Below, piece after piece: positions 356-39,579 of a DNA stretch of 64,000 nt; the stretch's first letter is position 1, and each line of letters begins with the position of its first letter. Source of the stretch: Psammoneis japonica (lineage: Eukaryota); assembly GCA_008632985.1 (NCBI GenBank), contig QPGO01000146.1, forward strand, positions 1-64,000, written 5' to 3'. The notes under the pieces are model-generated. The model was given only the letters and a program-made list of their open reading frames with translations. It did not search any database and had not been told where the DNA came from. The position numbers were made by a program, and so were the translations under genes.

Positions 356-1684
356 TCTCTTTTAAGAGTGGTCGGTCGCTACTTTTTTTAGCTCGAATTC
401 GGCCGAATAGCTCGTGATTTGCATGATTTTTTCTGAATTTCACCGTGCTTCACCGTGGTGAAAACCGTAAGCCATAAGTATGCGACGGAAGTGTGCCGGC
501 TCCATACTCTCATTGGTATTATGCTCGCCATGCATTGTATGATCAGTATCAGATGATAGTACGGAGGCGGAACGCTACGTTTTTGAGAAATATCGAAGAT
601 TGCATCATCGTCGTGCTTCGATCGCGGTGCCGATGCTTCTCGTTTTCGTGCGCGATCGGGTGGGAATGTGGATAATTTTTGTATTCAAAAATAAACACTT
701 ATAAATAGCCTTATTCAAATCGCACTGTAATTCTAGGATAAACGAGGGGGTGACCCCTCTTAACGCCAATCGTATCAGATGCCCGTTTGCGGCCATGGGC
801 CGTAAAAAATTTGCGGCCCATACATGGGCCGCAAATTTTTTTCAAATCTTCCACGATAGAGATAATCGATGAATAGACCCCACAATCGAATTCTGCATAC
901 CCGAAAACACAGGAATCGACACTTCAGCTGTTAAAAAAGTCCCACTGGTTGTTCTGGTGGCCTCTAAAATGTGCTTGCGATTTCGCGCAATTTTTCGCCG
1001 ATTTCTCCCTCCACCATGGCGGACCCTATGGCTGGCCCCACCCGGGAAGAACATTCACTCCAGCAACCTCAGACGCCTGATGACATCGTTGGGGAAATGC
1101 CAGATGTGTCAGAATTGCTTGGAGCGGGAATGGATGTGTCTTTTTCGCCTGCTCAAGACATGCCACCAAACCCGGCATCACTGAGTGCTCCCGAAGCACC
1201 CTCTGTTCCAGTGCTTCCCCCCCTCCAAGTCTTCCCATGCAGCCGCCAGTGGCCAGGAGAGCTTGAGTGTGATTCAGCTTTGCAAAACAAAAGTTGATTG
1301 TTCCTGATGTGATGTGCTTGCATCCTCAACAACAAACATTGAATCGTTTTGATCACGTCATGGACATTGGTGGAGCCACGTCTCCTGAGTGTCTTGAAAC
1401 CATCTTGGAACACATGGGAATGACCAACAAGACTCTTTCACATTCGAGAAAGTCACCCTTCCATGAACACACATCATCCCATCATGAAGAACACTGTCAA
1501 ATGTTGAATGCGGTGGATGCCGAACTGCATCATTGTGCTCAAGAGGTGATTCGAGCAGACTGCGATTTTTTCCAGTGCATCAAGGAATTAAAACTGGTGC
1601 AAGAATAAAACGAAAATGCAGGACATGACATGGAGTTGCTTTGCAGCTGTGGCAATTTGTCTTGTGCAAAGTGTCTCCCTTCTT

Positions 1685-2720
1685 TCAAAGTGCCTTGAAG
1701 CTCGACACTGTTTCTTCCAAGGCCGCTCCGTCAGGTCCGTCAAAATCTTGTTCCAACGCACTTGCAAAGACAGCCATGAGATTCGCATCCATCAATTCCA
1801 AACTGGCCTTGGCCAGAGTGATGCGAAACAGCTGTGACACACCACATTCCTCCAAAAGCAGTTCTGGTTTTTGCACCTCAATCTCAGTTTTGAGTGCAAA
1901 TCTCAACACTTTTCCATCGGCCGACACGGACACCAAATTGGGCATGAGGACGGTTTGCTTTGCATGGGTTTGTCACATTTGCCGCATGAATTTAAAAGAG
2001 TGGCAACCGCCGCAGGTTTTCCCAAACCAGGAAAGGTTGTCAAGTCACCGTCGCCTCGATGCCGTTTTCTTCCAACAAGACATCAATGGGGAAACTGTGT
2101 TCACCCGTCGCCTCGATGCCGTTTTCTTCCAACAAGACACGAGTGGGGAAACTGTGTTGTGACATGAGCAGAGAACAACAAAGAGTTGGCAAAGATGAGG
2201 AACAAAAGGGTTCATCTGGAGCACAGCTGCAATTTCGTTCATCCAATGACACACCGTTCAATGGCAACAATCTCAGCCTTGGCCATGTCACCAGCGGAAA
2301 AGATGCTTGATCCACGTCGACCTTGTTCCGTCTTGGCGTTGGGCAAGTCACCCTTGGCCGATCGACGAAGCGCAAAGAACGTTTTGGGAACGCGAATGGA
2401 AAAGAATCCAATGGGATCGACAAAGTCCTTCATTGGGATCGCACTTGCCACCACAACATTGTTGTTTGTTTCGTCATCCGCAATGGCTGCACAAGCCAGG
2501 AGATTGGCACCCAGTGCCGCCGTGACTGCCGATTTCTTCCAAAACGTTCGGCGACTGACAGCAAAATCAACCTCTGTGTCGTCCTGCTGTTGGTCAGTGA
2601 AGTTGTTTTCTGCAAACAGCTTTACACAAGAAACGTGACACCTTGGATGCACAGGATGTCACATCACTCTCTTACATTCCCGTGCAAAAATGACAACGAG
2701 ATGAGCGTTGTTTTAAGAAT
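1685..2720 (-). pseudogene. PsbP-domain thylakoid lumen protein, captured and disrupted copy
   Basis: Tat-type SRRTF motif plus AIA cleavage site; FVDPIGFFSIRVPK...AKAEIVAIER|FPTRVLLEENGIEATG joined across a 103-bp intron (2152-2254); C-terminal RITLAKA...AVFASALEQDF...VSSFKAL. Contains frameshifts and an internal duplication; 5' end appears truncated. Family assignment is from motif recognition only. Confidence 0.7.
2045..2157. repeat. 56/57-bp tandem duplication covering the intron acceptor and start of exon 2 of the PsbP-like pseudogene
   Basis: 2045-2100 and 2101-2157 are near-identical. Confidence 0.9.
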
Positions 2721-2833
2721 TGTGGGAAATTTGCGGCCCACATGTGGGTCGTAAAAAAATTGCGACAAGAATTTTGCAGCCCAGATGCGGGCTGCAAAAT
2801 TGCGTGTCAAGCGTCTGATGCGATTGGCGTTAA

Positions 2834-3960
2834 AGGCTGTTGTCGCCCAACACTGTGCAGCCAGACATGAAAACACACTTGATGTCAGGCACACAGCACA
2901 CATGGCACTTGTTGTTGCCAGACATGCTCAGCCTCCCGACACACTCTTGACAGAATGAAAAGTGTGTTTGCATGGCAGGGTGGTGATGCACGCATCCACT
3001 CTTTGACTGTTCTTCTGAATGTTGTGCCACAAACTTTTGCCTGTCTTTGTAAATCCCTCATTTGTCATCAACAAGACTTCCATTTTGTCACTGGCACTGA
3101 TGACAAGGGTTGGCATTTCCAACAGCAGATGTGTTTGTTGACCCTTTGCAGGGGGGATGAAATGCTGCCTTTTTGCTTTTTTTTTTCCCTCTCTCATTGA
3201 AGACTCAATCTGTGTCAAACTCATTGCCAGTGATGGGGGATCTTCAAATCCATGAAGATGTCACTGACAAAAAAATTCCTGTTGACTGCACTTCTTGATT
3301 CATTCTTTGTCATGGACTTCTGTGCTCATTTGCTTCATGGGGCACTTGTGCTCTTGCTGCCACTCCTGCTCCAAGCATGCTTTGGCATCTGTAGAAACTT
3401 CTCACTGTTGGCAACATCATCTCCAGCCAATTGTTCAATCAGTTGGTTCCTTGTCATTGATTTTGCTGATGTTTGTCTTTGTCTGACCCTGATGAATTCA
3501 GACTGTGCTTTGTTCATCTTTCAACAATGCCTGTGATGATTGTGATGGCACTTCCATTGGCAACATCTGTCACTGACATCTCTTGCTGGAACCCCCATTG
3601 ATTCATCAAACGTGTTCAATTCATGTTGCTTGAGACCCTCAGTGGCAAGATGCAGCGCTCCAGGGCTGATCCTTCCACTCTCACAAGCAGAAGATGTGCA
3701 ACAGCTGGGGTCACTCTCAATGCCGGTGCTGCTCTGATGAGACAAGTCACTGCAGTCTTCATTGACCAGCTCACTTGGTTTTGAGTTGGTGTCATTGTGA
3801 CGTGACGTTTCATTCGATGTCACCCGCAACAGCGCTCTTGGGGCAGCAAGAAGACTCATCGAGGCAGCTTTCATCCTCACGAGAAATCGAAGTGCACATT
3901 TTGTTCATCATCAGAGTTGCCGCATGTCAAGGGCAACAAATGAGGCGCGCTGTGGCAGGA
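2834..3960. repeat. TpA/CpG-depleted degenerate coding-like relic, unassigned
   Basis: Composition matches the hypermutated blocks; broken minus-strand frames with no recognisable domain. Confidence 0.35.
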
Positions 3961-4262
3961 GTGGGAATCGTTGTGGTTGTCGAAAGTTACGAAGTCGCGA
4001 AAAAAGTGAGAGGAGAAGCGGCGCATGCGCAACGGGTCTTGTTTCAAATCTACAGTAAGATGTCCCGACTTGCTGACTTCACGCAAAATGTATAGAATAT
4101 TATTCAGCAATTTATAAATTTGTATACAGTATAAAATGAAATTTTATTCGAGCATTCATTCGCCATCGTTGTCACAAAACGAAGGCGCGCGACAAATGCT
4201 TGTCATTCAACGAAATCAATCGCCTAGAGAGAGCCCTAAAAGTGATGTTACGAGCAAGCGAA

Positions 4263-7181: not shown

Positions 7182-7764
7182 CGTGGTGATGTAGAGACAG
7201 AGTAAAAAGAACTCAGTTTTAAAACCTGAGGTTTCAGGTTGACCGAAAAAAGGAAAAAAACGATGGCGGGGGCGGGGGATTCGCATTTTTGCAGGGGGTT
7301 GCATGAAAAATCGAAATTTTCATTTTCCCCTGTTTTTCACGTGTTTTCAAACATTTTGACTGAAGAAAAGTCGTCGTGCAGAGAAAGGGGGGCACAACTG
7401 ATGTCGGTCGTCCATCATCTCGAGCATGCAATGGATGGCACCACGTGAGTGCGAGTCAGAGAGGGGGCACCAAATGTCGCGCCTTGTGACGTGCGCATCA
7501 GAAGCTCACTGCTCGCACCCCTGACGTCAGTGCTCTCGTCTCAATCGCTGTCGGTCTCGCTCATCATTCGACCCACCAACGAGCTGACGTGCTGGGTGGG
7601 AGACATCATTGTTGTCTTCACGTCTGGTGATTCAGCAGCAGCCTCAGTCATTGTAACTTTTAATGCTGAGACCGAACTGCTCGACAAAGTTTTGCTGTTT
7701 TGCTCATGCACTGCGAAGCCCAACGAAAATTTTTTGCAGACAAGACAAACTGGCTCTCTTGCAG

Positions 7765-8766
7765 CTATGACTGAAGAAATGTCACAACAAATGTTGCAAA
7801 ATGTCCTAATTTCTTAATGGGTTCCTGTTCATCCAAGTGTTCTGCTTCAAAGGGTGTGCATCCCATCACAATGGAAAGCTGTGTGATGTTCGCCACTGCT
7901 TGGAAGGCAAGGTGATGCGTTGATCGATCATGACGATGCGTTCTTGTCATCACTTGGAAGCGCTTGAACCAACCGTTGAGGCTTCGTGGCGGGCGCGAGC
8001 GACGGTCTTCATGTGTTGGTCGGCATTGCGCAGGCCGGTCGGGGCCACACAATGCTGGTGTCCGTCACTGTGTGCCCCATCAGCCAAGTAAAACTCTCCA
8101 TCTTGAAGTTCACAATTGATCGCCTCTCGTGCCATGCTCAAATCAGGAATGCCAGCTGGGCAGGGGCCATTCACCCAAACCATCCAACCTGTCTGAATGC
8201 ATGTGGCGATTTCGTGCCTAAGCCCTGCGCCGTTGAATTTGTGCGAGTGCCAGATGGGATCGAACGGCGATGGTTCGTTGATGCGAAAGTCAGTGCCGTC
8301 CACCGTCACCTTGCATGCACTGCCATTGTCATCCACAAACCTGTTCTCCCAATCAATCTGTGATGAAATTATGGTGAATCAAATGTCAGTGCATTGATTT
8401 TCAAAGAGAAATTGGAGTCATGGTGCGCACCAAGTTCAAATTCGCAATTAGCGCTGTCCCAACCCACACCCATTTTCTCAACGTATCCTCGTGCATGCCA
8501 CCGCAGATTCTGGCCATTGTGGTTTCAGTGTCACACAGTTTCAGAAAACAAAATGTGTGCAGTGAATGAATGGGTAGAAATCCGCGTGGGATGTTGCCAT
8601 CATCTTCAAGAAGGCCCCACAACTCACACACTGCGTCTCGCGGAGAGCAGAAGTACGAGGCAAATCTGCGGTTCCAAATCCGTTGTGACCTCATCGGCCT
8701 CTGGATGACTGTCCCCGCAAGATAATCTACTGTGGCTTTGGGTGGGTGCATTTGCATGGTGAGCAA
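7765..8766 (-). pseudogene. Harbinger-type DDE transposase, hypermutated and frameshifted
   Basis: VTVDGTDFRINEP..WHSHKFNGAGLRHEIATCIQTGWMVWVNGPCP..LADGAH..RARHE; the family normally has Tyr at WYSHKF, LRYE and DxxY. Confidence 0.85.
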
Positions 8767-9712
8767 TGTAGACGTGTGTTGCGCGTGTGATGTTTTATGT
8801 CACATGCTGACAAGATTGCTGCGGCGCCAGTTCCGTGCAGCAGTGTTTTTGTTGCCGCATCACAGGTGGATTGATGGTCGGGTAGGGTTCTCATTCGTTT
8901 CCAACGTCTAAAAACAATGCTCTGATGTTAGGCCTTTTAGAGAGATTCCCTTCGGGAACGCTTTTGGCGCGGTTTCGGAACGCTTTTGGTGCGGTCCCGG
9001 AACGGTGGAAAAACGGGAATGATGAAATGCCCATTTCGTCGAATGGCATTTCCGTGTTGGAGCTGTTGGCGGTTGTTGTAGATGTGGTTTAGTGTCAAAC
9101 AACACTGGCAGTTACAACAACACTTTGTAGTTCAACTCACAGCCACTGTAAATCAAAATTGTTGAGACTTCTAACAGCCGTTCTTTTTCTTAGAGAAAAT
9201 GGCAACCTGTTTTGACGGGTGTACCTTTTTGCAATAAATCCATCTAATCTGTTAAACTTTTACACTGTTGTGCCACACTCAAATGGTTCTAACAACAGTG
9301 CACTAATTACAGTGCATCACATGTCTCATTGCCAGATTAAGAGGCTCCAAAGTTTGATTTCCGTGCGAATTAGTGCAATCGAGAACGTTCTCGGAACGGT
9401 TTTGGAACGCTTTTGGAACGCTTTTGGAACGGCATGCAAGGGAATCTTGAGCTCCAACACTTCACAACAGTCCCCCCCGATGGGCCTTTTTTTGGTTTTG
9501 GCGGTTGCAGCAATTTCAAATTTGCCGGGACTTGCATGTGTGGGATTGACTGTCCCACATAAAGAGAGAGTTGAGACGGTCGTGAACAATTCAAATCGGA
9601 GTTCGGGATTCGATGCAAACCTTGCCGTAGTGTGCCGAGCAAGCAACACGCATTCAGAGGATTTGCAGCTTGCCTCATCATAAAATTGAGAACAGTGACC
9701 AACACACACACG

Positions 9713-10847
9713 ATGGTGACAATGAACACAAGGAGCAAGTCAGTGTTTGGCACTGACTTGAAGCCGCCTCCCGCCTTTCGAAAAAACTCGCCCGACTGGA
9801 CACTGCTCAGGGATCTCCTGTTGCAAAAAAGGATCAATCCTGGAGCGTCACCAAAGGAGGTTCAGTCCATGCGTGCAGAGTTTTTGAAGTGTCCTCTTGC
9901 CAAATTTTGCACTCAGCTGTGCAAGCTGAGGAAAGAAACTGGTTTCAACCTGCGACAACGAAGCGCTGATGACAGCACTGCGCCACCGGCAGATGATGGC
10001 ACTGGTGGAAGTAAGTGTCGCCACATGCTGCACTTTGTCAAATGAAACAGAATGCACTCTCATGTTGCTCTTTTTTTCTCTTGACTGTTGTCCACTTGTT
10101 TCAAAAGGGGAAGACCTCGACATGGACGAGGACGAGCTCTTAGCCGACGTCAGCCTGCCGTCAGCCAAGGAAACCGGCAGTTTTGCAGCTGTCGCCCCCA
10201 CTGCTTTGGACCCCCCAGCACTTGAGGACGACCAGACATTCAAGCCCATGGTTTTGCAGGCGACCTGCAAGGATTCTGTCAACAAGACAGACCATGTGGT
10301 GCTGGTGATTGTAGCTCCCTCAGGAGCATGCACTGAGGACCTTTCTAGCTTCAAGCTCGCGGTGACGGGTGGCGGTTGGTTTTTACAGTGCACCTCCGAG
10401 TGGCCGGGTCACAGCATGGACATGGACTCACTCCATGCTGTGCTGGTGGAGGAGGCACAATCCCAAGGAGACCAAGAGCTCAGGGATGTGTGTGAGCGCC
10501 TAGAGGCACTTTCGGATCAGTTGTCCTCCATGAGGTTGTCGGACAGCGATGTCTTGGCGTCAACAGCCACTGTTCCTTTGCCCATCAAAGTGTCGAAAAA
10601 GATCAACAAGGTTCATCTTTTGGGGGGCAAGGATGGTTCAAGAATTGCATGTGTTGACCTCAAAGCTGAGGACTCAACATACCGCTCTATGGAGAGCCCC
10701 AAGGTTATGTTGATTGACGGCACTACTTGTATGGCGAAGTGGGGTGCGCGGCGTTTCTTTTCATTTTACATTGTTTTAGTTTTCACAGCAGCAACAAGGA
10801 CAAGTGTGGCGGCTGTCATTAGAAACACCAGTAGTTTAGAACATTAG
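9713..10847 (+). pseudogene. Accessory (ORF2) protein of the Harbinger-like element
   Basis: ATG at 9713; GTAAGT..AG intron 10011-10107 joins two open frames in phase; lies inside the TIRs opposite the transposase; nearly Tyr-free. 3' end uncertain. Confidence 0.55.
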
Positions 10848-11199
10848 TTTAATTGCATTATTCTTACTTCTTAGCACAGCAGTGTCTTTACGTCTTAGTT
10901 TCAATCCATAAAACATCGTTGACAACGACACCGCGTAGCCTCCGCTGTTGGCTACATCGATGCAGAGTACGGGCTACCACCTCGGCACCGCAGTCGGCAG
11001 CATCGGCTATCGGCATGCGTGCTGTTCGCACGATCCTGAAAATGCGAGAAAAACAGGGGAAAATGAAAATTTCGATTTTTCATGCAACTCCCAGTGTGTC
11101 ACGACTTATTATTTATCGATCCCGCGTGGCCACCAAAAATTTTTCAACGCGCGAGAAAAAAAAAATTGTGGAACGAATGCAAGTGATCACTGCTCAGAT

Positions 11200-14100
11200 C
11201 CCTTCTCGGTGTGCTTTTTTTAGCAACCAGGCCACGCCCAGAGACGTCCAGGGGCGTTTTGTAAACGTCTTTGTATGCCAAGAGCTCTTCTCCATGAGAC
11301 TCCCAAGCACATTCAATGCTGAATTGCTTCTCAGTGGTTCTTGGCCAAGGCACTCCGAGGACCACTGGAAGTTGGCGGGATGCTGCAGACACCATTGAAT
11401 CCCACCGTACGACCATCATGGGCAATCTGTCCGTCTGCATGCAACGGTCCTCAAAACACCCCTGTCCATTTTCTGGACATGATCAGTGGTGCCAAAATAA
11501 AAATGCCCTGAGCTCACACCAACAGAACTCCACCCTTCCAGCTCTTCACAGAACTCCAACACAACAACAAAAGTGGTGGAGATGACACATTCTCCGGTCC
11601 ATCATGTCTGGCAACAGAGAGGGTGATGACAGCAAGGACAACAACATCACTGCCTGATGCAGATTTCACGAAGGTGTCAAGCCAAAATGACATGGGGCAC
11701 GGGCTGTCAGACGGCCCACATTGCATCTGCAAGAGAGCAGGGTTCAGTTTGCCAGCAAACTTTGTTGATGGAGCAGCAGAATCAAGCTGCACTGGGTTTG
11801 TGGGTGGATCACCTGGGTTGGCTCACCTGGGGCTGGCAAATCAGCTGATCTTGTGAGAACTTTGGCAACCAAAGCACAACAACAAGAAGATTGTTTGGCT
11901 TCAATTTGATCAGAACGGAGTGGCCGTGCATCAAGCCTTCAAAGAAAGTGGGTGTGAGGGATTTTCAAGTGGCAACGCCCCGCCCCAGGCACTGCAAATG
12001 ACACTGCAGATGTGTGCTCCTTCATGCAATGTGTTGACGCAGACATTTTGGTCATCAATGGAGCAAAAGGTGACAACTTTGCACCTTTTAAATTGGAGCT
12101 CCTCAAGTTCTGGGGCAGCGGCAACAACCAGAAGTGCAAGTGTGCTTTTCTTGCAATGTTGGGCATGATCAAACATTTGCATCAACACAAGATTGATGTG
12201 TTGGAAGAGCAGCACAAGCATGCAATCTGGGAGTTGTGCAGAGACACTTTGCCATTTGCTCCTGGACTCCGGACAAATGCTTTGAAGCCTTTGTTGTGAG
12301 TGGACAGAGATTGCCTCTCTTCATTGAGATCAGTGACATTTTTGCAGTTGACTGGGACATTGAAGTGGAAGATGACATGGAAAGCAAAGGTGAGAGAAAA
12401 GAAGTTGGGATGGTCAAAACTGGAAGTCATCAGTCAAAGGGGCAGTCACACAGAAGTTTGTCTGTGTTGGAGGGTCTGCACGGTGGATGCTTCAGAAGTC
12501 AACTGCACAGATTGACAATGTAATCTCAGACTGGCTTGACACATGTGACAAAACAATGAAAATTTTGTCCTTTGCTCTTGGTCCAAAATCCCCACTTGCA
12601 AAGATGCTCCTGTTTTCATCATTCAAGAATGCAACAATCTGTCAGCAGACAGAGTGTGCTGCAGTTGGTGAATGGGCTGCACAGCTTGTTGTCAACCAGT
12701 GCAGCAAAATGGAGTCAAAGCATTGCACAAACATGCTGCACTCACTTCAGAACCCCTCATTCCTTGGCTGGGTGAACAAAGCTGCCCTGTTTGAGAGAGC
12801 CAAAAACAGTCATCTGGTTTTGAAAAAAAGAGAAGTGGACCAACTTGTTCCAGTTAAATGCCAGCAAGGAGCCCCCCTTGAATTTGACTGTGGGTGCCTC
12901 CTTCAGTTGTGCCTCAAGAATGACAACAAGCTCCTCATTGATGAAGTTAAGAAGCTTGTTCCATGGAAAGGGCAAGTGCAAATGTGCAAGCCCGAGAGAC
13001 CCAAAACCAAGGTGGGTTTGATGTTGTTTTCATTGAAGTGGACCAGGGTGACACCGAAGCTGCACTGATGTGTGCTTCAGCCAAGTTGCCAAGTTGGCAT
13101 CCCAAAGCCTCCAACCAAAGTGCTTTGCTGAATTTCTCCAATTTTTTGCATGCACAACCCCACAAAGTTGTTTCAGCCAAAATCACTTTCATTGTGCTTT
13201 GAGCAAAATTGATGATTTCTGCATGATGTGCAGTGATGTGAAGGACTCTGGCCACTTGGGTTTGCACACTTGCTGTGGGGCTGCACCCGACATGTTCCAG
13301 CTGCACGTGAACCAAAATTTTTGCATGGTCCCTGACTCATGATTGAGCTTTCACCACCAAAAGCATGGATTTGTCCAAGTGCCAATGTTTTGCAACACTG
13401 TCAGAACTGGCAAAGGACAAATTGGTGGTCCCATTCTGGCATGCTGACATGTTTGAAGTTGTGGTTGACATTGTCAATTGAGCTGCAATGCAGGGCAAGG
13501 AACCAGGATCAACACTCGGAAAAGGAACGGGGGCACATTTCTGTGAGTCAGGTGACTTTGGACACACAGCAGTTTGTCACAGCTTTGTTGCTGTCCTTGA
13601 TGAGGGGGGTGGTCAAGGCAAGCTCCACATTGCTGCTGTTGTGAAAGGCAAAGACTTGCATGATGCTGTCAATGTTTTGCAACACTGTCAGAGCTGGCAA
13701 AGGACCAATTGGTGGTTCCATTCTGGCATGCTGACATGTTTGAAGTTGTGGTTGACATTGTCAATTGAGCTGCAATGCAGGGCAAGGAACCAGGATCAAC
13801 ACTCGGAAAAGGAACGGGGGCACATTTCTGTGAGTCAGGTGACTTTGGACACACAGCAGTTTGTCACAGCTTTGTTGCTGTCCTTGGCAAGGGGGGGTGG
13901 TCAAGGCAAGCTCCACATTGCTGCTGTTGTGAAAGGCAAAGACTTGCATGATGCTGTGGAGAATGCGGTGGCAGGGCCACTGGAAAAAGCTTAGAAAAAG
14001 CTTGTGGCATCACTTGTGGCAGAGCTGCGAGTGACTGAAGGCAACACTGAACACCAAGCTGTCATGTTTGCACCAAAAGAAAGCAAGGTTAGCTTTGTTC

Positions 14101-15050
14101 ACAAGGCCACCAAGTGCTGACTTGTGCACTTGTCAGACAATGAAACCAAGAACAACACAGTCACACTCACAAAATGGACAAGCCACGAGCCCAACAGATC
14201 TCCCACACAATGCAAACTGTCAATGCCAGTTGCCACTTCTGGCTCAACTGTGCCTTTGGTTCTTGAGAGCTGTGACATCAAACTGCACAAGGTGTTCATG
14301 CCAGGCACTGGCAATCTGTGCTGCACCAGTGTGATGCTTGGAAAAGAGGGCATGCCCCCCCCGTGCTGGTGCCCACATTGTCAACTGTCAAAGGCTCAGT
14401 GGTCCAAGAAACTTCCAAGCAAAGCTGATGTCGTCATGTGGACACAAGAGAAGCTGAAAGATGCTTTAAAAAGCTTTGATGCAAAGAAGAAGAAGAGCAG
14501 CAATGCAAGAGGTCATTTGGGAGCAAAGGCAATGGCTTGTTGGTCCCTTGAGCCAAGGGATGTCACATTCTGCCAGCATTGCACATTCCATCGGGACTTG
14601 CCAAAGACCTGCGGGACAACCTGGAGGAGCATGCAAGAGGCACAGCTGCATGTGGCAAGGAAGAATGGGACATTCTCCAGGAGGTGGCTGTTGACAATGA
14701 GATGCTGGCTGACACCAAAGGCAAATGGAAATCAATTGAAGTGGTCATGAAACAAACAAAAGCTGAGCGGGCCAAGTCAGCTCATGTTGCATTCGAACAA
14801 CAGCAAGGTGAGCCTGAGGTGAGTGAGGCAATGGAGCAGTTTGAAGAGCTTTCAGATCTGCTGCAAGACTTGCAACAGCAGGATTCGTCAGTGAAAGAGT
14901 TGAAAGATGCGACAACAATGCAATTGAGACACCTGCAAAAACACATCTGCATGATTGTTTTTTTTATGAAAATTGTCCATGCATGGGAGACGCACAACTT
15001 GTGTTCAAAATGGATTGTCGTTTTGTGTGTCACCTGGGGCTAGAACACAT
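11200..15050 (+). mobile_element. Degenerate large DNA transposon relic with a Transib/Chapaev-like transposase core (~13450-14950)
   Basis: GTGNL..VMLGKEGM...WCPHCQL followed by HILPALHIPSGLAKD resembles the GDL..LLG..CxxC / LPxLHIxLGL core of CMC/Transib-related transposases; many frameshifts; termini not found. Confidence 0.4.
13383..13957. repeat. 287/288-bp near-perfect tandem duplication
   Basis: 13383-13669 and 13670-13957 differ at only a few positions. Confidence 0.9.
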
Positions 15051-18000
15051 TGCCCACAGAAGATGTTGCTGCCAAGCAAAAGAACCATTGGACCAAGTTC
15101 AAGGAGCATGAGCAGATCAACATCTGTCAATTGGACATGAAAGCATGGGTTGTCCCACACTGATCCAGCTCAAGCACGGTGTCTCTTTCTTCTTCTTCTG
15201 GCAGATGTTGTGGGTGCAAGCAGTCTGTCAACACAAGCACCAGCAACTGGCAAATTGTGAGCTGTTTAAAATTGTGTGGCTGCCATGCAGCAATGCATCC
15301 TGTGGCTCTTCTTTGTTGCCAGCTTGTTTTTAACCTCATTTTTCTCTTTCCCGTGGATGTCCTTCAACGCAGCATTGTTTGTGTCTTTGTTCAACACACC
15401 CCTGTTGTGATCCATGTGGCACTTGCCAGAGACAGACCAGTGCCCATGATGGCCTCTCAAAGTCTGCAGCACTCCCTGCAGTGGAGTCAAAAATGACAAA
15501 ATTCATCCAGTCTTTCACCAAATTGGGTTCACAACACAATGTTGCAGCCAGTCATCACCACCACCCGGCAAGCAGAGAGATTGTCAAAGGAGCAGCATCA
15601 CAACATGTTGCACACAGTTTGGCTTTCATTCCATCTGCTCAAGCAAGTGAGCATGTGCTGACTTTTGTCAGCTTCTGCATGACCTCATTTCTGTTTCTGT
15701 TGTTTTGCTCTCTCCTTTCAACCCCCATTTCCTCTGGTGTGTCACGCAACAGAGATGCACACAGAATTTTGAGCTCTTGTTGAATTTGGGCTTGGCCATG
15801 ATGGGAGCCACAGCTTTGAAGCAGCAGCCATTGTTCTTCAAAAGTGAGTGTTGTGGGTGGAGAGTGGGGCCAGCTTCAATGTCAAGCTTGAGCTCCTCCC
15901 ACTCCATTTCTCAGATCAAGCTCTGCTTTGGTCTCATTGAGGGCACAAAAGCTTGTAAGTGCAAGTGGAGTGAAACGCTTGTGCTCTTCTTCAACTTCAA
16001 TTGAAGCATGTGAAAGCCTGGATCTTGAAACTGCTGCAGTGGGAGTGCAAAATTCAAGCCATGGGTGTCACTTTGAGGGGCCGCACACACCAAGTCTTTT
16101 TCTTGGAAATTGTCAAGAGAACAAAGTCATCACGAAGCAAAAGATGTTGGAACATTGAGGTGCAAGGCAGCTCTTGCAGGACAAACAGACAGTGTTGCAG
16201 TGTGTGATGTGCTGACAATTGCTGGCAGTGTGGCAAATTCACACTCAAAGCTCATGTTGATTTGTGGGTCTTGTGCTCACTTTTCAGCTGCTTCTGCACC
16301 TGGTTGACACAGTGATGGCAGCAACAGCAATGGAGTGTGCTTGCAATCCACATGCAGCAAGTTGTTCAGGGGTTGGTGAGACCAAGCATGTGCCGCCAGT
16401 TGGCAAGCATTGAAATCCCAACACAGAAGCTAAAAGGGCTGGCTGGAATTTCACCAAGAATCCAAAGATGCAACTTCTGTCAGCGTTGATTGCAACAAAC
16501 AAGCAGGCTGAACAAAGGCAAGTGAACAGTCTTTGGAGGACCTTGCTGTGAGAAAATTGTTGATGATCTGCTGAGTCAGTTCATGAGCACTGTTGAGATG
16601 GTGAAAGGCACCTGTGGCAGACTTGCTCAGGAAGAAATTGCAAAAAAAAGGATGGGTTCAGCAAGGATGCTGATGGCACCTGGAAGAAAGAAGAGGACAA
16701 GCTGTCAGCTGTGCTGCCAACAGAAGGTGCCAAGGAATGCTGGCACATCTTGAAAGACCTGCACTGACAATGTTCACACTGGAGATTGACAGCCACCACA
16801 GTTCATCAGAGGAGGCGATGCAGGTGTTGGACACACGTGGGTCCAACAAAAAACTGAGGGCACAAGCTTTGTGCTTTTCAAAAAACAAGAAAAACAAGCA
16901 GATCAAATGCTGAAGATGTGACAAGGTTGGGCATGTGAAGAAGAGCCATCACACTTTGCTCATTGATGACAATGACCACTCTTCAGCAGAGGAGTCAGAT
17001 GATGACGTCAGTCATGAGGATTGACAGTGCAGCTGGTGCGGCATTGGAGATGGAGCAGTGGCTCCCAACTGTGTCACCCTCCTTTGGTTGGTGCACACAA
17101 AGCACCAATCAATTGTCAGCTTGTGTGCAAAGGAGTGTGTTGGCATGCTGGGGTGCAAGGCAGTTTTTGCAAAACAGACAGACAATGGTGCAGTGCATGG
17201 AAGGCTGACATTGTTGATGACGTGGCGAACTTGCACTGGCAACTCATGTTGAGTTGCAGGCTTTGTGCTCACTTTTTAGCTTCTGCACCTGGTCAACATG
17301 ACAACAGGGGCAACAGTGGCAGCATCAACAGGGGCGTGCTTGCAGCCCATGTCATGAGTTTTTGGGACGGCTGGACTGAGCAGGTGCCAGTTGGCAAGCC
17401 GTGAAATTGCAGCAACAGGCAGAGCTCAGAGCTGTCAGCAGGATCTGGTTTGCCTGAGCACTGGTGCTCTGGATGACCTGGCTGCAGATGTCATCCTTGT
17501 CACATCATGCTGTCCATTTGTTGTCCTCCAGGAGGTTTGTTGCCCTCCCACACTTCTTGGAACACAGAGCTCCATGCAAGTCCATGACTCTCTCTGTGCA
17601 GCAAGGCACTGGCAGAGGCAGCATGCTGTGTGCAAGACAGCAGCACACTTCAACCACTGCCGACAGGAAAATGGGCCACAACATGGTGCCATTGCTGTCA
17701 TGCACTTCACAAGTCACATGGTTTGTTGCTGTCTGTTCAATCCCCCCAGCCCCCACGCCGCTGCACAGGCCCATGTGGGGATTTCACTCTCGTTTCTGCT
17801 GATCTGATGTCATGTTGCCAGGACTCTGCTCTGCTGGCTCCACAAGTGTCTGGTCTCCCGGGATTTTTCCTCAATTGAGGATTGCAGGTTCTGCGTGGGT
17901 GCCCTGCCAGAGCCATCAAACGGTCCTTTAACTCCCACCAATTTGAGCACAAAAACTCCTCAGTCGCAAAATGCAACGTGTGTGGAATCTGTCTCAGCGT

Positions 18001-18300
18001 GTGCACATTTCAGCCATGTGAATGCCTGCCCTTGCAAAAATGGTTTTTGGTGCCTAAAAAAATCAAGCCGGCATCGCCGTTTGCTCTGTCAAATTCCACA
18101 CAATTTGCACCATCCTTGATTGAGGTTTTTTACCTCAATTGAGGTGCTTGGCAGACCAGACACTAGAGCTGTGCTGGTGCATGTTGCCAATCAGAAACGA
18201 GCTGTTTTAAGGAAATTTTGTCACCACATGTGGTGTTGGGCGTCTCGTGACTTGTTAAAACAGCACTCGTGAGTCAAAATGAGAGGTCCAGATTTTCGCG
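15050..18300. repeat. Nested degenerate repeats; possible gag zinc-knuckle relic near 16900-16950
   Basis: Extreme TpA and CpG depletion; KKNKQIKC*RCDKVGH resembles a CCHC knuckle; internal similarity between ~16240-16410 and ~17230-17400. Confidence 0.35.
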
Positions 18301-18739
18301 TAGGAAGCATCACTCCAACACTGCATGCACTTGATGTTGTCATCATTTACATCCACGAGGCTTGTGCCACAAGTGTGTTTCCATGCCATGTGATGTCTGA
18401 TGACAAGGAGAACTTTGCAAACGTCAATGGATGTGGCAAGTCATTTGCAAGCCTCAGATGATTGTCGCATCGAATTGCACTGCCGGCATCCGGCATGCCA
18501 TCATGCCATTGCATGCAGCAATGATTTCAACTGTGCTGTGTTCTGATGTTGTCCTTGTCTTGCTGCATTTCACTTCAGAGCCGAGCCATGGCATTGATGA
18601 AGAAGCAGAGTGTGAGCAGAAGATCCACAAAACAGTCGGCAAGTTTGATTGTCATTTGTTGTTGTTGCATGTTCATGATTTGCACATGTGTCTCACTGAT
18701 GTTCATTCTTTTGTCTGTCATTGGTGCGCAGCCACAGGC

Positions 18740-19252
18740 ATGGCAGCCTTTTGGGAATCAGCTTACAGTGGCACTCTGTCAACCATTTTGTCCATCCCCA
18801 ACAAAACAGACATGGTCACTGTTGTTGCCAATTTGCAAGAGGATGCCACGGCACTGGCCAACGCATCTGGCGGCACCCTCACAGATTCCTTGAGCAGCAG
18901 CACTGCTGTGCAGCCAGCTTCAGTCCCACCCCAGCCCATTTGCCGTTGTGCCTGCTGTGGTCAATCTCCATGTGTCATGCTGGGGATGCATGATCAACTT
19001 GTAGAAATTGGAGAAGAAGGCAAAGAGATGGATTTGAGCAACAAGCAGATCCGTTTTGGCTTGCACCAAGAAGCTGTCTTCCTGCTCCATGGACCTCTCG
19101 GGCATTGCAATCATGTGGAGCTTCCAGATTGCATCCACAGGGAGACACTTGATTTGTGTCCTCAGACCTGCGATGAACCGCACACCGGCTTCAAGAAAAG
19201 TGGAGATGGTGCTCAGTGTCTTTGTAAATTTAGTTGGCAGGTGGCAACTTGA
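18740..19252 (+). pseudogene. P2RX7-C-terminal-like (transposon-associated) Cys-rich domain, hypermutated
   Basis: CACCGQSPC...NKQIRFGLHQ..LLHGPLG..VELPDC...LCP...PHTGFK fits N..R...YR....YG.LG..R..LP.C....YP...YTGF once His/Cys are reverted to Tyr. Confidence 0.55.
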
Positions 19253-19553
19253 TTTGACAAGTTTCAGCCATTTTGTTCTCTTTGCACCCAACTTTGTTTC
19301 CAACTGTCAGTGTGGAAACAATGTGTGTAAAGCCACAACCGGTTGCACCAGAAATGGAAGCATCGTTTCATGCTCGGTGTCGCACTGCATCTGTTGGGTG
19401 ACACGTGCAGCTGTTGCTGGTCGTGCTGGCAACAAATGGAAGCGGTGGCACGAACTTGGTGTTGCGCAAACCTGTTGGGTGACAATTGCAGCAGCTGTTG
19501 CTGTGTGAGCCATTGTGCAACATGGTCACTGTGTTAATTAAAGAGGACTGAAT

Positions 19554-20054
19554 TCATGCACCGTCCTTTTGCATGTCTTTCAGTCGACACACAAAGGGGT
19601 GCATCCCAAAATGAATGATGAAGTTATGCTGAGCGTCTGCCAGAACAAAGAACTCTACCCCAAACTTTGCGGGCTTGTCTTTGTTGTATCGCCTGACAGG
19701 ACAAAACCATGACCAACAACGCACTCCACCTTCGTCAAAAGCTCTTGTGACAGGAGGGGGGATTCTTGGAGAAGACACCCTTCCAACTGGGCTGTCTTCA
19801 TTTGGGACACTGGCCGCATTCATTTCCTGGCGCGCCACATTCTTGGTGCCGACTTGAGTGCATTCATGCATTTTTATTGCTTTCTGCAACTCCTCTTTTG
19901 TTTTGTTGTCATTTGGAAACATGTGGCGCAAATGTTCCTTCTGTATACCTCCAGGAAGCTGTGACATATTATCCCACTTGACTTGAAAATGATTATTATT
20001 GGTCTTCCGTGGACACGCCACCACGGTGCCTTCCATTGTTGCCACGTCAAACAA
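19554..20054 (-). pseudogene. Internally deleted piggyBac transposase fragment
   Basis: AFDEGGVRCWSWFCPVRRYNKDKPAKFGVEFFVLADA matches the piggyBac DE..RQY.K.KP.K.G motif; only partly TpA-depleted. Confidence 0.75.
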
Positions 20055-22799: not shown

Positions 22800-25700
22800 C
22801 GCAGATGAATTTTTAGCTTCTTTCATTCACAGCTTGGTGAGAGCGCAGAAGCATCATGGCAGAATAAGTGAGACAGTGCATGCTGCCGGTTAAGGTTTTG
22901 TGCAGACTTGAGAACGTAATGTGGTGCATGCCGGCAGCCTCAAATGACAACAATGAGGGAGATGAAAAAAATGGCAAAGATGTGTGGGGCGCAAGAGCCT
23001 GGATTCTCAAAGCAGCAAAACAAAGGTTCCAGCAAAACAGGAGAGGAGCCAAACAAGTTCAAGCTGAAGGTTTTTCAAAGAGACTGTGAGTCTGTGTCAG
23101 AGGCTGTTGCACTCTTTTTGTTGTCACTTGTTGCATCTTCTGATGCAGCTTGATCAGCTTGTGGGCTTTCCTGTGGGATGGGGCTGCCATGAGGCTAAAA
23201 TCCATGCAAAAATGATGCCCACATGAAAAGTGTCTTTGAAAACTTGTCACATGCACTGAGAGGTTGTTTTGGGCACAATTGCAATTTCAACACCTTGCAC
23301 TTTCTTTCTGCCATGCCAGCAAGTGTGCTGTCCATGGAGGTTTTCCAGATGCTGCCCAACAACCGGGCCAAGTTTGTTGCTCACAAATCAAGCTGGCACG
23401 TGATTGATGCCAAGTGCCAAGCTTTTTTCATGTTTGTTGATGGCCTGTTGGCAGATCTTGGTTGGATCCTGCTCTGCCCAAAAAGGCTTTTGTTTGAGAC
23501 AGTGCCAAGAAAAAGAGAGAAAAGGAGGATGGAAGAATGAAAGAGCCAGGAGAGTTTCAACAAAGACTTGTGAATGCCAGGATTGCCTGCACCACCCAAT
23601 GTTGAGAAGGAGGTCATGTCAAAGTGAGCAGCTGGCAACTCTGCACAGGCTGGGGTTTCTGAGGAGGCTGAGCACAAGATTGAAAAACAACAGAAAGACT
23701 TGTGAAAAGAGGACACAAACTTTCCAGAGAGGAGCAGTGGACACAAATGACAGGGCGTCTTGTGGCCCTTTGAAAGTGTGCAGCCGTGCTGAAAATGGCT
23801 GGAAACAGATGCCAGACCATGCAAATCTCAGTTTTCTCCCACCAGTGCAAAAACAAACACGCCCAACATTTGCAGTCAAACCAGCAGATTTGGAAAGTCA
23901 AACTGGCAGGGCCAGCCCATCTGTTCTCTGTCAAATGGAAAACTTCCAGCACTGGCACCCCCCCCCCCCCCTGTGTTGCTTCTTGGCTCCTCCTTCCCAC
24001 CCATGTGCTGCCATGACCTCATCACTGGCTGGCCACTCTGTGATTCCCACATCATTGTGGATTCATGCACTTCACAAAAACAGAGCACAATGACAGTGAT
24101 GATTTAGTTTCTGCTCCTGTCCACATTTGTCAACTGCCACTTTGTGCCAAATGATGATGTGCAACAAATTCAGTGCAAGCAAGGGGTTTGCAAATTCAGT
24201 TTTCAAGGCAGCAGCACCAGGTGATGTGTGTGCGCAACTGTTGACCAGGGCTGCTGCTGCAGCAACATGGGATAACGTGCATGTTTCTTTTGCAGCTTGC
24301 CCCAAGAACCAAGTGTCAAATCTGTCAAAGCACTGTGTCAGAGACCAGGGCAATGTCCAATGAGAGACAGCAGAGAGCATTGCATGCGGCCATTGCAAGC
24401 TGGCCAAGAGCAACCATCAGGGACAAGAAAGATTGCCACGAGGGCATGTGTGATTTTTTTTTAATGCTTGGGTTTGCAATCTGGGTGAACTTGCATGCCA
24501 GACTTTTTGGGGGTTGCATTGTTTGCTGTGTGTGCTGCAAAGAGGGGGCAGGGCAAAAGCCCTGGTGTTGTCAAGACAAAAAAGCCAATCCCAATTTTAA
24601 GTGCTGCCACACCTTTGCCCAGAGCAATGCTGACACCAGTCAACCCACACTTCCAGCACACTCTGCAAGGAATGCAGCAGAAGATCATGCAATTGGCCAC
24701 AAAGGGCATCCTCCAAAGAGGATGCCTGCCTGAGAGAAGTGGGGATGATGTGGCAACACATTGAGGAGATTGTTGCTTTCACATGGGCTGGAGACATGTC
24801 TGCCATGCCAGAGCAGCAAAGACCAATCAGCAAAGAACAATCACTTGCAGAGTTTGGTTCGGGAACAGCAAAGGAAAGGAAGTCAAAAAATGATTGCCGA
24901 ACCACTGGCTGTCACTCATCAAGAGGGGGGCCAGCACATCCAAACCTCCAAGAAGCGCAACAGTGGAAAGATCGCTGCATGCAGCCGGGAGCTTGATTTG
25001 CTGGCAAGTGAGGGAGGGGTCACACAGGACTGGGAGACAAGAAATGGGAGTGCTTGATGATGTGACAAGTCAGTCATCAGGAAAAACATCTTTCACACAT
25101 GGAAATCATGCCAGATCTTGTGCAAAACTGCCAACTGCCAACATGCACAGCAAAGGGAAGATGGTCAGTTGATGAATGAGGAAAGCTCTCACTCACACTT
25201 GTCACCAGCACCACAACTGAAGCAGTGCTTTCACCACATGTGGTGAAGGACTTGGTTGGCCAATGGGAACAAAGAGACTTGTTAAAGACAGATGACCATG
25301 GGCACAGGAAGCTTGGAAGATTTGACAACACATTTGTCGGTGGTGTTTGCTGAAGCATGCACAGAGCTTGCACTGAAATCCATGTAGAAAATTTTTTGGA
25401 TCTGCAGAAAACAACAAAAAAGATCAACAAGCATGCAACCCATGAGGAGTTGATGCCAGTCATTTTCCACTTGGTCATGTTGCTTAACATGCTGAAACAA
25501 GGGCATGCCATTGATGTGGAAATAGCCAAAATGGTCTTGGGAGACAGCAAAATGCCATGTGAGAAGAGCAACCTCAGCACAAGAGTGCACACAGAAACAA
25601 ATGCAGGGGTTTCTGGTGGGCAACTGCCGCAGATTTGTGGTGTTGTCAAGAGACAAAACAGGGGTGGGAGCAGATCCACAATGATGTGCTTTTGCTGCCC

Positions 25701-26480
25701 AAGGAAGAGCAATGCATTGTTTTCACTTTTTTTCTTGTCACAACGGTTGTCACCAGAAGAAAGTGCTGTGTCTGTCATGTGCACAACATCTGCTCAGTCT
25801 CTTTGAGTGCGCCCGCCCCCTGGAGACGCCGCTGGTGTGAGCGGTGTGCTGCTTTTTGTGCAAGGCAGAGAAGAGCTCACACCATGGCTTGCCCCCACTC
25901 TTGGGAGGACAAATGAGGAGTGCATGCTCTCTTCAATGACCACACAACTCTGCTTGTTGATGCAGGGTGTGCTGTGCATTGCAGCAGCACTGCCATCATC
26001 TTTGTGGTGGCACACGTCTCTCTCGTCTCTCACAGAGCTGCTGCACACATTGTGAGCACATGACATGCTGCTGTGAGTGACAGTGTTGCTATGAAAAGAG
26101 TGCTGAAATTTGCTCGAATGGTCACAGTGTGGTGCCCCAAGGCAAAAGCCAAGTCAGATGTGCCAAACAGCTCGCACTGTGAGGAGCAGCAAAATCAGAG
26201 CTGGCCGAGAGCTGTCCCCACATTGAAGAGAAACTGTGAGAAACTTGCACACACTCTGTTGAGGAAGCTTGCACAATGCAGAATGTGAGGCCACATCTCG
26301 CAGAGAGAGTGGCCTGTACGAAATTTGAGAAAGGGCCTCCTTTTTCATTTTTTGAATGGCACACCAAACGCCTCATTCGCACAGGTCCGTGTGAACGACG
26401 TGCGTGCCGTGCGCCCCCCCCGCTCGCTCTCACCATACCACGCGACTCCACACGTCGTGCGCCACCAACTCAGTCGTGAC
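22800..26480. repeat. Degenerate TE-like block depleted of TpA and CpG, unassigned
   Basis: Sharp compositional change between two intact genes; CG-rich edges share a short inverted match (GTGAGAGCGAG at ~22786, CTCGCTCTCAC at ~26423). Confidence 0.5.
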
Positions 26481-26987
26481 CTCATCGCTGATTGGCTCTG
26501 CACAATCGATACCACGTCATACAAGATTCATAGAATTTTTTAAAGACTGAATATAATGAAATGAAAGGATTCGGCTTGTGTAATAGCCCCATATTACTCA
26601 ATTGCAGCTGGCATTAAATAAGATGCGATAAATTTAGCATAAGGGAGGGGGTTCGCAAAACTGTATTTTCATGGCATCCGTGTCAGGTGACGCGCGCAAC
26701 CATTGGTCGCCACAAACAACAGCTAGCACGAGGAACAACTCGCTTCTTCACGAGGAGTAGCAAGACTGACAGAGTTCCCTCCAACGATAGAGGCTAGTTC
26801 CAAGCCAATAGGGATTTGAAACTAAAGAGCAAAACAGAGGTAGGCGTAAAGAGAGAGCGAGAGGTCTCATGGCGGCGTCTGTACCATAAACGAATTGAAG
26901 TGAGAAAGCGACGGGAGAAATTAAAGAGAGGAACATACCGCAAAAGGTATAGTTGATTTTGAAATAGTTTTATACGAAAGAAACACC

Positions 26988-37752: not shown

Positions 37753-38527
37753 CTGAATGCAGATGGGTCAACAAAGTTCTCTCAAGAGCTTGCGCATTTG
37801 CCGTTTCCGTTTACGCTCAAAGCTCTGCGTGCCGGAGGGAAGATTTATTGGGAAACCTCGGGAAGAACGGAAAATTTTGGCGGGAAATCCGAGACTCGTA
37901 GATGTTGGTACAGATTCTACGCAACGGTTACCAAGAATGCAGTGACGTAAGTACATGGTCGTCTCTTTCCGAGAAATCGTGCAACAGGAATGTCAAAATG
38001 AAAGCCCAGCCAGCTTCAAAGCACTGCATTTGTTGATAGAAATACCTCTTCACCACTGACCCAGCTAGAGTGCATGCTTCCCAACATTCTGCGAAGCTGA
38101 ATAGGATGTGGTTGACATTGGATCATCAGAGACAGCTCACACTTTCCTTGGAAAAACCAGGGGCGACACAGCCAGTCCATTGCAGTGTCCTTTTTCTGAC
38201 CAACTCCAGAACCAGCCACAACCAACAATGTTTTGCATCTCAACTGTCAATGAAGGAGATGGGGTTTCCGGCTTTAAAGTGTCTCTTTGGTCACCAGCAC
38301 CACAACTGTCTTGTCGCTAAATTGAAAATGTGGGCCAAGACTGCGTTGATGCTGAGTCACGATTGGTGTCACGACCCACGACTCATCCGGAACAGAAACG
38401 CGGATGAACATTGCCGCTGTCATCATTTGTGCTCTTCCTTGACCTTGCATTTACAGTTCAATGCACTCCCAAATGAGGTTTCCTTCATTCGACAGCGTGA
38501 AACAGGTGGTCCACGGCATTGCGCAAC

Positions 38528-39579
38528 ATGTCCGAAAACAAGAAGGGGCATCTTCCGCTCAAGGCAGCGACAGCACAGGTTGTCTCTGAAGCAAATGGCG
38601 CTGTCGTCGAGGACGTGGAAGAAGTCGCGGCAGTGGGTGTGGTTCAAATTGTTGCTCCGGCTGATCTGCCTGAAGGCTTTTGCTTTGAAGCTGAGGTGGA
38701 AGGGGCGCCCATCTACATCACTGTGGTGCGCACGGCGCACGAGTTTTGTTTTGTTTCACATGTCGTTGTCGCTTGTACGAGCAGTTGGACTGATGTGACT
38801 TTCACTTTTGTGCATGGCCAAAAGGTGGCATCGAGAAAGGAAAAAGATTTTTGGTGGCGCCTGCTGAAACAACCTTGAGCCATGAGAGAACCAACACCCC
38901 AGTTGGAAGGTGGAAGGATGATCTCTGTGACTGCTGTGTGCATGGCTGTTGCCACGCTCAGATGTGCCTTACAATCTGGTGCCCCTTGTGTGAGTTCTTC
39001 ATGCTGTCATAGAAGCAACTGTCGCCCTGAACAAAAGGAGGGGCTCACAATGGTGCGTTTTCATGCCGCTGCAGGCGCGATTGCACAAGTGATGCAAAGG
39101 CCAAACCTGAGCTGGTGTGGAGATCATGTGCGAGGGTCCGCAGGCACGAATGCCCACAGAGTCATGTTCCATGTTGCAGCTGCATGCATTGTAGCTCATG
39201 TCATGCTGCCTGTCATGATGATGGCCAGTCTCCAGCTGGCATGTCATGACAGTGGATGCCACAGGCATTCCAATTCGCGCGGGACTCAGACGGATTGTCA
39301 AGCCAGCGTCAATGGTCTGGATCAGCTTGGTGTGACACTTCACTCTTGTTCAGGCCTGCACCTCCTTGTGATTGCATCCAGGACACGGCATTGCTTTGCC
39401 AAAAATGCTCCATTCTAGCCTCCGGTTGTTGCGCGGATTGTGAAGATGCATGCTGCATCTTTTGGTGCGGGACGTGTGGCATCTGTCAAATGGCTCGTCA
39501 CACTGCGGACTACGATGTGCACCCCGCTGTGTGCTGCGAGCCAATGGGGATTCATCCCGATGCTCCGATCATTGTCTGA
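38528..39579 (+). pseudogene. PLAC8-family gene copy 1, intron-containing, TpA-hypermutated
   Basis: VAPADLPEGFCFEAEV, GRWKDDLCDCC..GCCH...IWCP, IAQVMQR, CEDACCIFWCGTCGICQMARHTADY. Confidence 0.8.

Follow-up and report, generated by a model that had tools for sequence, protein, structure and literature searches.

Mutation-accumulation lines of Bigelowiella natans show TpA-only A:T-to-G:C hypermutation of integrated viral DNA, with giant-virus and virophage inserts as the main targets (Mettrop et al., 10.64898/2026.01.13.699255). In that preprint, DDE endonuclease and reverse-transcriptase Pfam domains are over-represented among coding sequences poor in TpA, and adenine deamination by an ADAT2-like enzyme is proposed, not demonstrated (10.64898/2026.01.13.699255). 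A full-text search of the literature on TpA hypermutation found only this preprint and nothing on diatoms; a match to "TpA" in PMC4504042 was discarded because the word there is "Tpase". Here we describe a comparable loss of TpA (TA below) in mobile elements of Psammoneis japonica (Eukaryota; assembly GCA_008632985.1), within the first 64,000 nt of contig QPGO01000146.1, to which we refer as the window. Its central case is a minus-strand pseudogene (7768-8799) that, judged by similarity to known families, is a dead PIF/Harbinger-type DDE transposase gene and carries His or Cys where related transposases carry Tyr or another aromatic residue. These His and Cys residues are very probably the coding read-out of TpA-to-CpA/TpG transitions, made by a local mutator that acts on mobile DNA at the DNA level.

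Repeat-induced point mutation (RIP) of Neurospora and other fungi converts CpA to TpA, raises TA and AT content and is tied to duplication and the sexual cycle. It resembles the process described here in being a DNA-level, transition-only hypermutation that disables mobile elements tract by tract and can be recognised from dinucleotide frequencies, but the direction is reversed: TpA becomes CpA/TpG, and G+C rises (0.57 in the interior of a Copia element versus ~0.47). Instead of the TpA enrichment typical of RIP, the whole window shows depleted TA (0.33, observed/expected, as for all dinucleotide ratios below) and enriched CA (1.43) and TG (1.45), with CG at 0.70; in addition, a high-depth repeat at 351-900 is unmutated. 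Decay of 5-methylcytosine at CpG also ends in TG/CA and yields Cys, His, Gln and Trp codons, from Arg. However, it cannot turn Tyr (TAY) into His or Cys, and the Harbinger relic and the Copia element keep CG at 0.78-0.84 where TA has fallen to 0.13-0.20. ADAR/ADAT A-to-I editing and APOBEC hypermutation are deaminations directed against repeats and viruses that take place on RNA or single-stranded cDNA; in the present case, the altered sequences are DNA transposons, terminal repeats and long terminal repeats (LTRs) that had already integrated.

The closest match is therefore the B. natans process, with which our locus shares changes almost exclusively from TpA to TpG/CpA, restriction to foreign or mobile DNA with the neighbouring genome spared, involvement of both strands, and a direction opposite to the usual GC-to-AT bias. 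That study measured new mutations in culture lines of a chlorarachniophyte, whereas the evidence presented here is historical and comes from transposons in another genome. TA loss also goes much further here (down to 0.04), and older relics show CpG decay as well.

The sequence-only reading had pointed to WHSHKF, LRHE, GPCP and DGAH as transposase motifs with His or Cys in place of an aromatic residue. All four are present, each in an aromatic column of the alignment of 152 relatives, and two further replacements were found in FLKLC and FEAEH (Table 1). The consensus residue is retained at none of the four Tyr-consensus columns, compared with 93 of 121 other conserved columns (Fisher p = 0.0037). 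Among the 10 columns in which at least 15% of the relatives have Tyr, the window carries His or Cys in 8, Tyr in 1 and Leu in 1. The overall Tyr content is 0.9% in the relic and 3.6% in unaffected relatives.

Such residues might be ordinary subfamily variants, or reflect a codon or composition preference of the element, and not be damage at all. The closest protein relative, P0006, indeed shares His at LRHE/LKHE and at DGAH; it is, however, Tyr-poor itself and differs from the window at other Tyr columns, two of which show the opposite outcome (Cys against His), which argues for at least partly independent hits. At the seven aromatic columns, 129 of the 152 relatives carry no His or Cys, and the 14 relatives with at least two such residues are Tyr-poor throughout (again 0.9% versus 3.6%). 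Loci with TA of at least 0.45 contribute only 4 His/Cys among 379 aromatic-column residues, and the gene itself is disrupted by stops and two changes of frame. We therefore practically dismiss ordinary variation as the explanation.

The loss of Tyr follows the loss of TA. Metagenome loci encoding relatives were taken from 387 pattern matches, 187 of which were confirmed; the best 80 were kept, and all 80 were analysed. Across them, the higher the TA ratio of the coding stretch, the lower the fraction of His/Cys at aromatic columns (Spearman rho -0.66, p = 2.5e-11), and the correlation is maintained after removal of near-duplicates (rho -0.65, n = 66). The possible objection that homologues from TA-normal DNA carry the same His/Cys thus does not hold. 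Because the mutated window ORF (open reading frame) served as the query, retrieval could only enrich mutated relatives, a bias that runs counter to the conclusion drawn. Where the flanking DNA was long enough, its TA was normal next to a depleted element: 0.09 versus 0.81 in 2115 bp of flank for locus L005, and 0.24 versus 0.65 for locus L032.

Site-by-site reversion leads to the same result. Each single-base change in the relic was scored against the residue counts of the relatives' columns. Reverting CA or TG to TA improved the fit at 28 of 56 non-synonymous sites. The controls did worse: transitions outside these contexts helped at 24 of 183 sites (p = 4e-8), transversions of the same CA/TG dinucleotides at 41 of 147 (p = 0.005), and a return to CG at 18 of 73 (p = 0.005). 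The improving reversions go beyond Tyr and include Met or Thr to Ile (ATA), Ala to Val (GTA) and Ser to Leu (TTA).

A set of closely related environmental copies captures the change at the level of individual sites. L033, L003, L004 and L005 are 95-99.5% alike and have lost TA to graded extents (0.58, 0.34, 0.49 and 0.26, respectively, over the aligned parts). L004 (1648-3121) and L005 (1-1486) are 95.4% alike and differ at 61 of 1482 aligned bases. Thirty of these differences are TA in L004 versus TG (18) or CA (12) in L005. The opposite is seen at 3 positions, CpG transitions account for 8, and only 1 is an A-to-G change outside TA. L004 has 54 TA sites. All 16 located before index 387 are unchanged in L005: its initial 386 bases escaped conversion despite being part of the same repeat as the converted section. 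Between index 387 and 1350, 27 of 28 sites have become TG or CA, and the 28th reads TC. The change in L005 is thus saturating, confined to a tract and present on both strands, and is not slow uniform decay.

The TA loss could also be a chromatin side effect, a by-product of error-prone repair synthesis in silent methylated chromatin or of a mispairing modified thymine or adenine. Other differences are indeed raised in the L005 tract as well (12, plus 7 at CpG, in 964 bp, versus 1 in the 387 bp before it), TA-poor tracts do not track element ends, and the oldest blocks of the window have lost CpG too (0.11-0.25), as expected of methylated DNA. On the other hand, 27 of 28 TA sites in the L005 tract were converted while other sites differ by only ~1-2%, and the Copia element has lost TA (0.13) while retaining CG (0.84). 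DNA polymerase eta (Pol eta) errs at WA motifs, and a WA-type polymerase should also produce AA-to-AG changes; however, reverting AG to AA improved the transposase fit at only 2 of 9 sites, and the single A-to-G change outside TA among the 61 differences between L004 and L005 speaks equally against it. As for modified thymine, 5-hydroxymethyluracil at TpA is known from dinoflagellates, and our literature search found no text supporting this route. Overall, we regard a by-product of this kind as unlikely.

The Copia element in the same window extends the observation to a retroelement. At 32 Tyr-consensus columns of its pol frame, Tyr is kept in 4 and replaced by Cys in 19, His in 5, Trp in 1 and Phe in 3, whereas 445 of 519 other conserved columns are kept (p = 2e-18). 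Since CG is retained at 0.84 with TA at 0.13, TA loss does not need CpG decay. The two LTRs of such an element are identical at integration, so that the differences between them arose afterwards, in chromosomal DNA. The LTRs are now 91.7% alike, and their differences comprise 6 CA-versus-TG double sites, 3 TA-versus-CA/TG sites and ~5 CG-versus-TG/CA sites, next to 1 transversion and 1 other transition. A pair of unclassified copies (37996-39196 and 48087-49283) behaves similarly: 9 of 11 TA and 33 of 40 CG in one read TG/CA in the other, and 36 positions are CA/TG double sites. In the Copia region (40746-46532), many long open frames occur on both strands, of up to 832 residues, with 375, 333 and 264 residues on the opposite strand; as TA loss removes TAA and TAG, they are no sign of intact genes.

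Both outcomes occur within a single element. Tyr codons of the Harbinger relic (coding on the minus strand) became His in 6 cases and Cys in 2, and those of Copia (coding on the plus strand) Cys in 19 and His in 5; a single edited RNA strand cannot explain this. In window terms, the outcomes of both elements amount to an excess of A-to-G on the plus strand, in small numbers and explained in part by the sequence context described below. TG and CA are also intermixed along the L005 tract without strand runs (14 runs, p = 0.36). Furthermore, Harbinger and TTAA elements move as DNA, terminal repeats and flanks were changed as well, and the LTR pair diverged after integration. For the DNA-transposon cases, reverse-transcriptase error and editing of an RNA intermediate are thereby ruled out, and a process on integrated DNA remains. 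RNA-level A-to-I editing, or a reverse-transcriptase bias, that reached the DNA through reverse transcription or RNA-templated repair is accordingly extremely improbable. It can draw on the overlap of TA-poor tracts with coding parts of the elements and on a likeness to the present process in the preferred 5' neighbour, U before the edited A being a known preference of RNA-editing deaminases according to the B. natans preprint (10.64898/2026.01.13.699255).

The changes are also local. Host-type long ORFs identified in a Pfam scan of the window comprise LRR proteins, cyclins, sulfotransferases, a short-chain dehydrogenase, ankyrin and RCC1 proteins, consistent with eukaryotic content. In 15 host ORFs, TA ranges from 0.28 to 0.64, with 14 at 0.40 or above, and in 10.5 kb of spacer, counted without ORFs or TA-poor tracts, it reaches 0.66; in the mobile-element parts it is 0.04-0.28. 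TA-poor tracts sum to 35.5 kb of the 64 kb, and their borders are sharp, with TA density passing from normal to none across tens of bases. The general under-representation of TA (0.33 in the window and 0.28-0.64 in host ORFs) would fit a genome-wide neutral bias from TA to TG/CA, under which the relics are merely old and unconstrained. Such a bias is very unlikely given the TA content of the spacers between host genes, the sharp borders, a Copia element already at 0.13 with LTRs still 91.7% alike, and the saturated L005 tract adjoining an untouched part of the same element. The lowest host value belongs to Ank2 (59856-60977, minus strand; TA 0.28, G+C 0.53), which we considered as a hypermutated gene copy and rejected, because the Tyr residues shared with its diverged ankyrin paralogue (58485-59690; TA 0.56, G+C 0.47) are kept except for one Tyr/Cys difference.

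In summary of what is directly observed, the direction of change is TA to CA/TG (A:T to G:C); both strands of the chromosomal DNA were altered, once the elements had inserted; and the changes fall in tracts of ~1 kb to more than 10 kb over the Harbinger relic, a TTAA-flanked element, Copia and unclassified relics, with neighbouring genes and spacers spared. The claim of the sequence-only reading that one Tyr-to-His/Cys signature runs through unrelated classes of transposable elements, and reflects a process on DNA not specific to any element, is thus borne out by the transposase, the TTAA tract, the LTRs, the presence of both outcomes and the relatives.

The bases next to TA influence its fate. 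As a survival index, we compared the surviving TA in TA-poor tracts with that in host ORFs for each context. ATAT has vanished entirely (index 0), RTAY is nearly absent (0.02-0.04), CTAA persists at 0.35 and TTAA at 1.46. By our own arithmetic, the 16 context values fit the product of two per-strand terms set by the base following A, with susceptibility in the order T > C > G and A spared. Because TA before A is spared, TTAA survives. In the relic, each of the six codons that went from Tyr to His is preceded by a purine (RTAY), which places both strands in the favoured context, whereas the one conserved-family Tyr that survives in the relic follows T. This flank rule (TA followed by T or C hit, TTAA spared) is seen here, and the text of Mettrop et al. 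does not contain the words trinucleotide, context, flanking or TTAA.

A host-encoded activity directed at mobile-element DNA would account for these patterns. The simplest chemistry would be adenine deamination in DNA at 5'-TA-3', with the resulting inosine read as G, and targeting could rely on some mark of mobile-element chromatin or transcripts. More tentatively, and with rather less confidence than for a local DNA-level mutator as such, diatom-like algae and other protists represented in environmental metagenomes may possess a dedicated defence system that converts TA to TG/CA in the chromosomal DNA of any newly resident element, DNA transposon or retroelement alike. Its tracts would be saturated and extend over about 1 kb or more, and the flank rule (TAY hit, TAA spared) would be the fingerprint of a DNA adenine deaminase.

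Several observations weigh against the reading as a local, DNA-level mutator of mobile DNA. The deaminase step is an inference, as we saw no enzyme, DNA modification or targeting signal; of the earlier suggestion of a host pathway, what is shown is the local, DNA-level and element-independent character, and the proposed P2RX7-C-like case discussed below is unconfirmed. Depletion in the Harbinger relic is partial (TA 0.20-0.22), near-normal patches lie within the candidate element that contains it (8551-9350 at 0.46 and 10701-11300 at 0.62), and tract boundaries do not coincide with element ends. The stretch 351-900 is unmutated despite high depth (the summed contig depth of 3719 at 1-667 is the highest in the region examined, compared with ~65 for unique DNA), so that simple repeat-induced targeting, in which every repeat is hit, does not fit. 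Reverting every CA/TG to TA blindly lowers the summed transposase fit (-24.2 and -12.7 log2 units), since about half of these dinucleotides are original; the expectation that reversion raises the Harbinger fit hence holds site by site against the controls and fails for the summed score. Some His/Cys states may predate this locus, having come from a source copy that was mutated before. Finally, the split of the 80 metagenome loci at TA 0.45, with at least one His/Cys in 17 of 20 loci below and 3 of 60 above, uses a threshold picked after seeing the data, of which the rank correlation is independent.

New in this work are DNA-transposon evidence with controls, the tracking of TA loss by Tyr loss in 80 environmental relatives, and a near-identical copy pair with a saturated tract. 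A dedicated enzyme, if one is responsible, would amount to a eukaryotic DNA A-to-G editor of natural origin with a defined motif, a "reverse RIP", relevant to how major marine algae defend their genomes and to the enzymology of base editing. For annotators of such genomes, His or Cys should be expected at positions that belong to Tyr. Relics of this type evade profile searches, as illustrated here by a Pfam score below cut-off and by the oldest blocks, which are without any match, and, since neither TAA nor TAG can arise as a stop, they contain long spurious ORFs.

Table 1 Features of the Harbinger relic and of other mobile elements in the window
Feature	Position	Strand	Details
N-terminal piece of PIF/Harbinger-type transposase pseudogene	8404-8799	-	profile positions 12-111, 50.8 bits; contains FLKLC
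Broken junction, N-terminal piece/DDE core	8379-8403	-	frame change; two in-frame TGA stops in old frame; relatives code through
DDE core	7992-8378	-	match 7953-8378, profile positions 89-247, 193.6 bits; WHSHKF, LRHE, GPCP, DGAH
One-base frameshift between RARHEA and LNGWFK	7979-7981	-	frame comparison
C-terminal piece	7768-7991	-	match 7768-8064, profile positions 248-298, 40.0 bits; contains FEAEH
FLKLC	codon 8533-8535 (TGT)	-	column 75; relatives Y 35/41
WHSHKF	codon 8247-8249 (CAC)	-	relatives Y 70, F 51, W 8, H 4
LRHE	codon 8214-8216 (CAC)	-	relatives Y 136, C 8, H 6 (of 152)
GPCP	codon 8160-8162 (TGC)	-	relatives F 98, Y 31, H 5, C 3
DGAH	codon 8070-8072 (CAC)	-	relatives Y 115, H 7, C 5 (of 133)
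FEAEH	codon 7837-7839 (CAC)	-	column 295; relatives Y 32/42
TA-poor tract	7221-8574		spans 3' flank, C-terminal piece and DDE core of transposase gene
Left arm, 56-nt inverted repeat	7294-7349	+	candidate terminal repeat; contigs join 7353 to 11025 on opposite strands
Right arm, 56-nt inverted repeat	11037-11092	-	inverted-repeat search
TTAA-flanked element, 2074 bp	760-2833		16-nt terminal repeats 764-779, 2814-2829
Nearly TA-free tract	1028-3987		12 TA in 2960 bp
Stretch of unconfirmed identity	18740-19252	+	in TA- and CG-poor block 11301-19850
Copia 5' LTR	39686-39961	+	LTR pair comparison
Copia pol frame	44364-46532	+	RVT_2, E = 1.7e-21
Copia 3' LTR	46483-46757	+	LTR pair comparison

The identity of the transposase relic follows from a profile built from 25 full-length relatives, which the minus-strand ORFs 7950-8378, 8401-8799 and 7765-8064 match in order. 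Against Pfam DDE_Tnp_4 (PF13359), the window ORF scores 18.8 bits, under the cut-off of 24.8, and yields no match at E <= 0.001. PF13359 is matched by 22 of 41 aligned relatives (best E = 2.1e-10), and the family comprises 1732 cluster representatives at E <= 0.001; by these similarities, it is a divergent branch of DDE_Tnp_4. The columns D27/D30, D100 and E132, invariant in two alignments of the relatives and taken by us to be the catalytic residues, are kept in the window ORF. The frame changes and stops listed in Table 1 are the reason why we consider the gene dead. Contig depths and variants were derived from other contigs of one DNA sample, two of which carry an extra A after 7980 (depth 388/419).

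Over 7765-8799, 14 TA remain in 1035 bp (0.22), with CG at 0.78; in the domain 7201-8550, 12 TA stand against 85.5 expected, with CG at 0.84. TA density is closer to normal at 8575-8799, reported as the last 250 bp of the coding sequence. The 56-nt inverted repeats, whose arms agree at 52 of 56 bases and differ once by a TG-versus-CA double site, may bound a 3.8-kb element (7294-11092) containing the transposase gene. PIF/Harbinger elements make a 3-bp target duplication (TWA) and have a second, Myb-like ORF. The triplets outside the arms are unlike each other (GCA versus AGT) and thus form no matching target duplication, and the ORFs between 9216 and 11395 matched no Pfam family at E <= 5, which leaves no Myb-like second ORF found. 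A 305-residue open frame on the plus strand (9930-10844), located in the TA-poor tract 9351-10700 and likewise without a Pfam match at E <= 5, could represent either the remains of a second gene of the element or a spurious ORF of the sort that TA loss produces. Summed contig depth is 479-2241 across 7338-11339 compared with ~65 in adjacent unique DNA; this value is not a copy number, but hints at many copies. The patch 8551-9350 has a contig depth of 2241 and contains short repeated GGAACG...TTTTGG motifs; together with 10701-11300, it could be a spared part of the element or a younger insertion.

The TTAA element (Table 1) is bordered by TTAA at 760-763 and 2830-2833, and its 16-nt terminal repeats match at 15 of 16 bases. 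The single mismatch, CGTAT versus CGCAT, had been cited in the sequence-only reading as a further instance of the same change. It is real: base 773 is T, within TA, and its counterpart at 2820 gives CA when read along the element strand. As a single site it is anecdotal; it gains polarity from the position of the CA arm inside the nearly TA-free tract. This tract begins ~270 bp inside the element and extends 1.15 kb past its right end, and is therefore not defined by the element. Target duplication (TTAA) and terminal inverted repeats are features of the piggyBac type, whereas Pfam searches at E <= 10 with six internal ORFs (1273-2751) and two ORFs past the right end returned chance-level matches only and no piggyBac-type transposase; the element is either non-autonomous or degraded beyond reading. 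Between the TA-free stretches 1-314 and 1028-3987, the segment 351-900 has normal TA (0.80) and overlaps the left end of the element.

A P2RX7-C-like relic had also been proposed for the stretch at 18740-19252. This identity was not confirmed: any resemblance is limited to motifs, and no match was found in Pfam (E <= 10), a word-indexed protein search (near lengths only), Atlas or PDB sequences. The block that contains it (11301-19850) and two others (22851-26500 and 46758-52300) have the lowest ratios, with TA at 0.04-0.07 and CG at 0.11-0.25. Their ORFs gave no Pfam match, and the blocks are presumably old mobile elements mutated past recognition. Older relics additionally show CpG-to-TpG/CpA decay, a second process overlaid on TA loss; TA loss precedes CpG loss, as the Copia element and the Harbinger relic still keep CpG. 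A possible lead for the CpG-erasing component of the oldest blocks is the diatom DNMT4, which is described as related to fungal RID and of unknown function (PMC9998398). Inside a fully TA-depleted block, a ~290-bp tandem duplication (13380-13669 and 13667-13957) has copies that are 97.3% alike.

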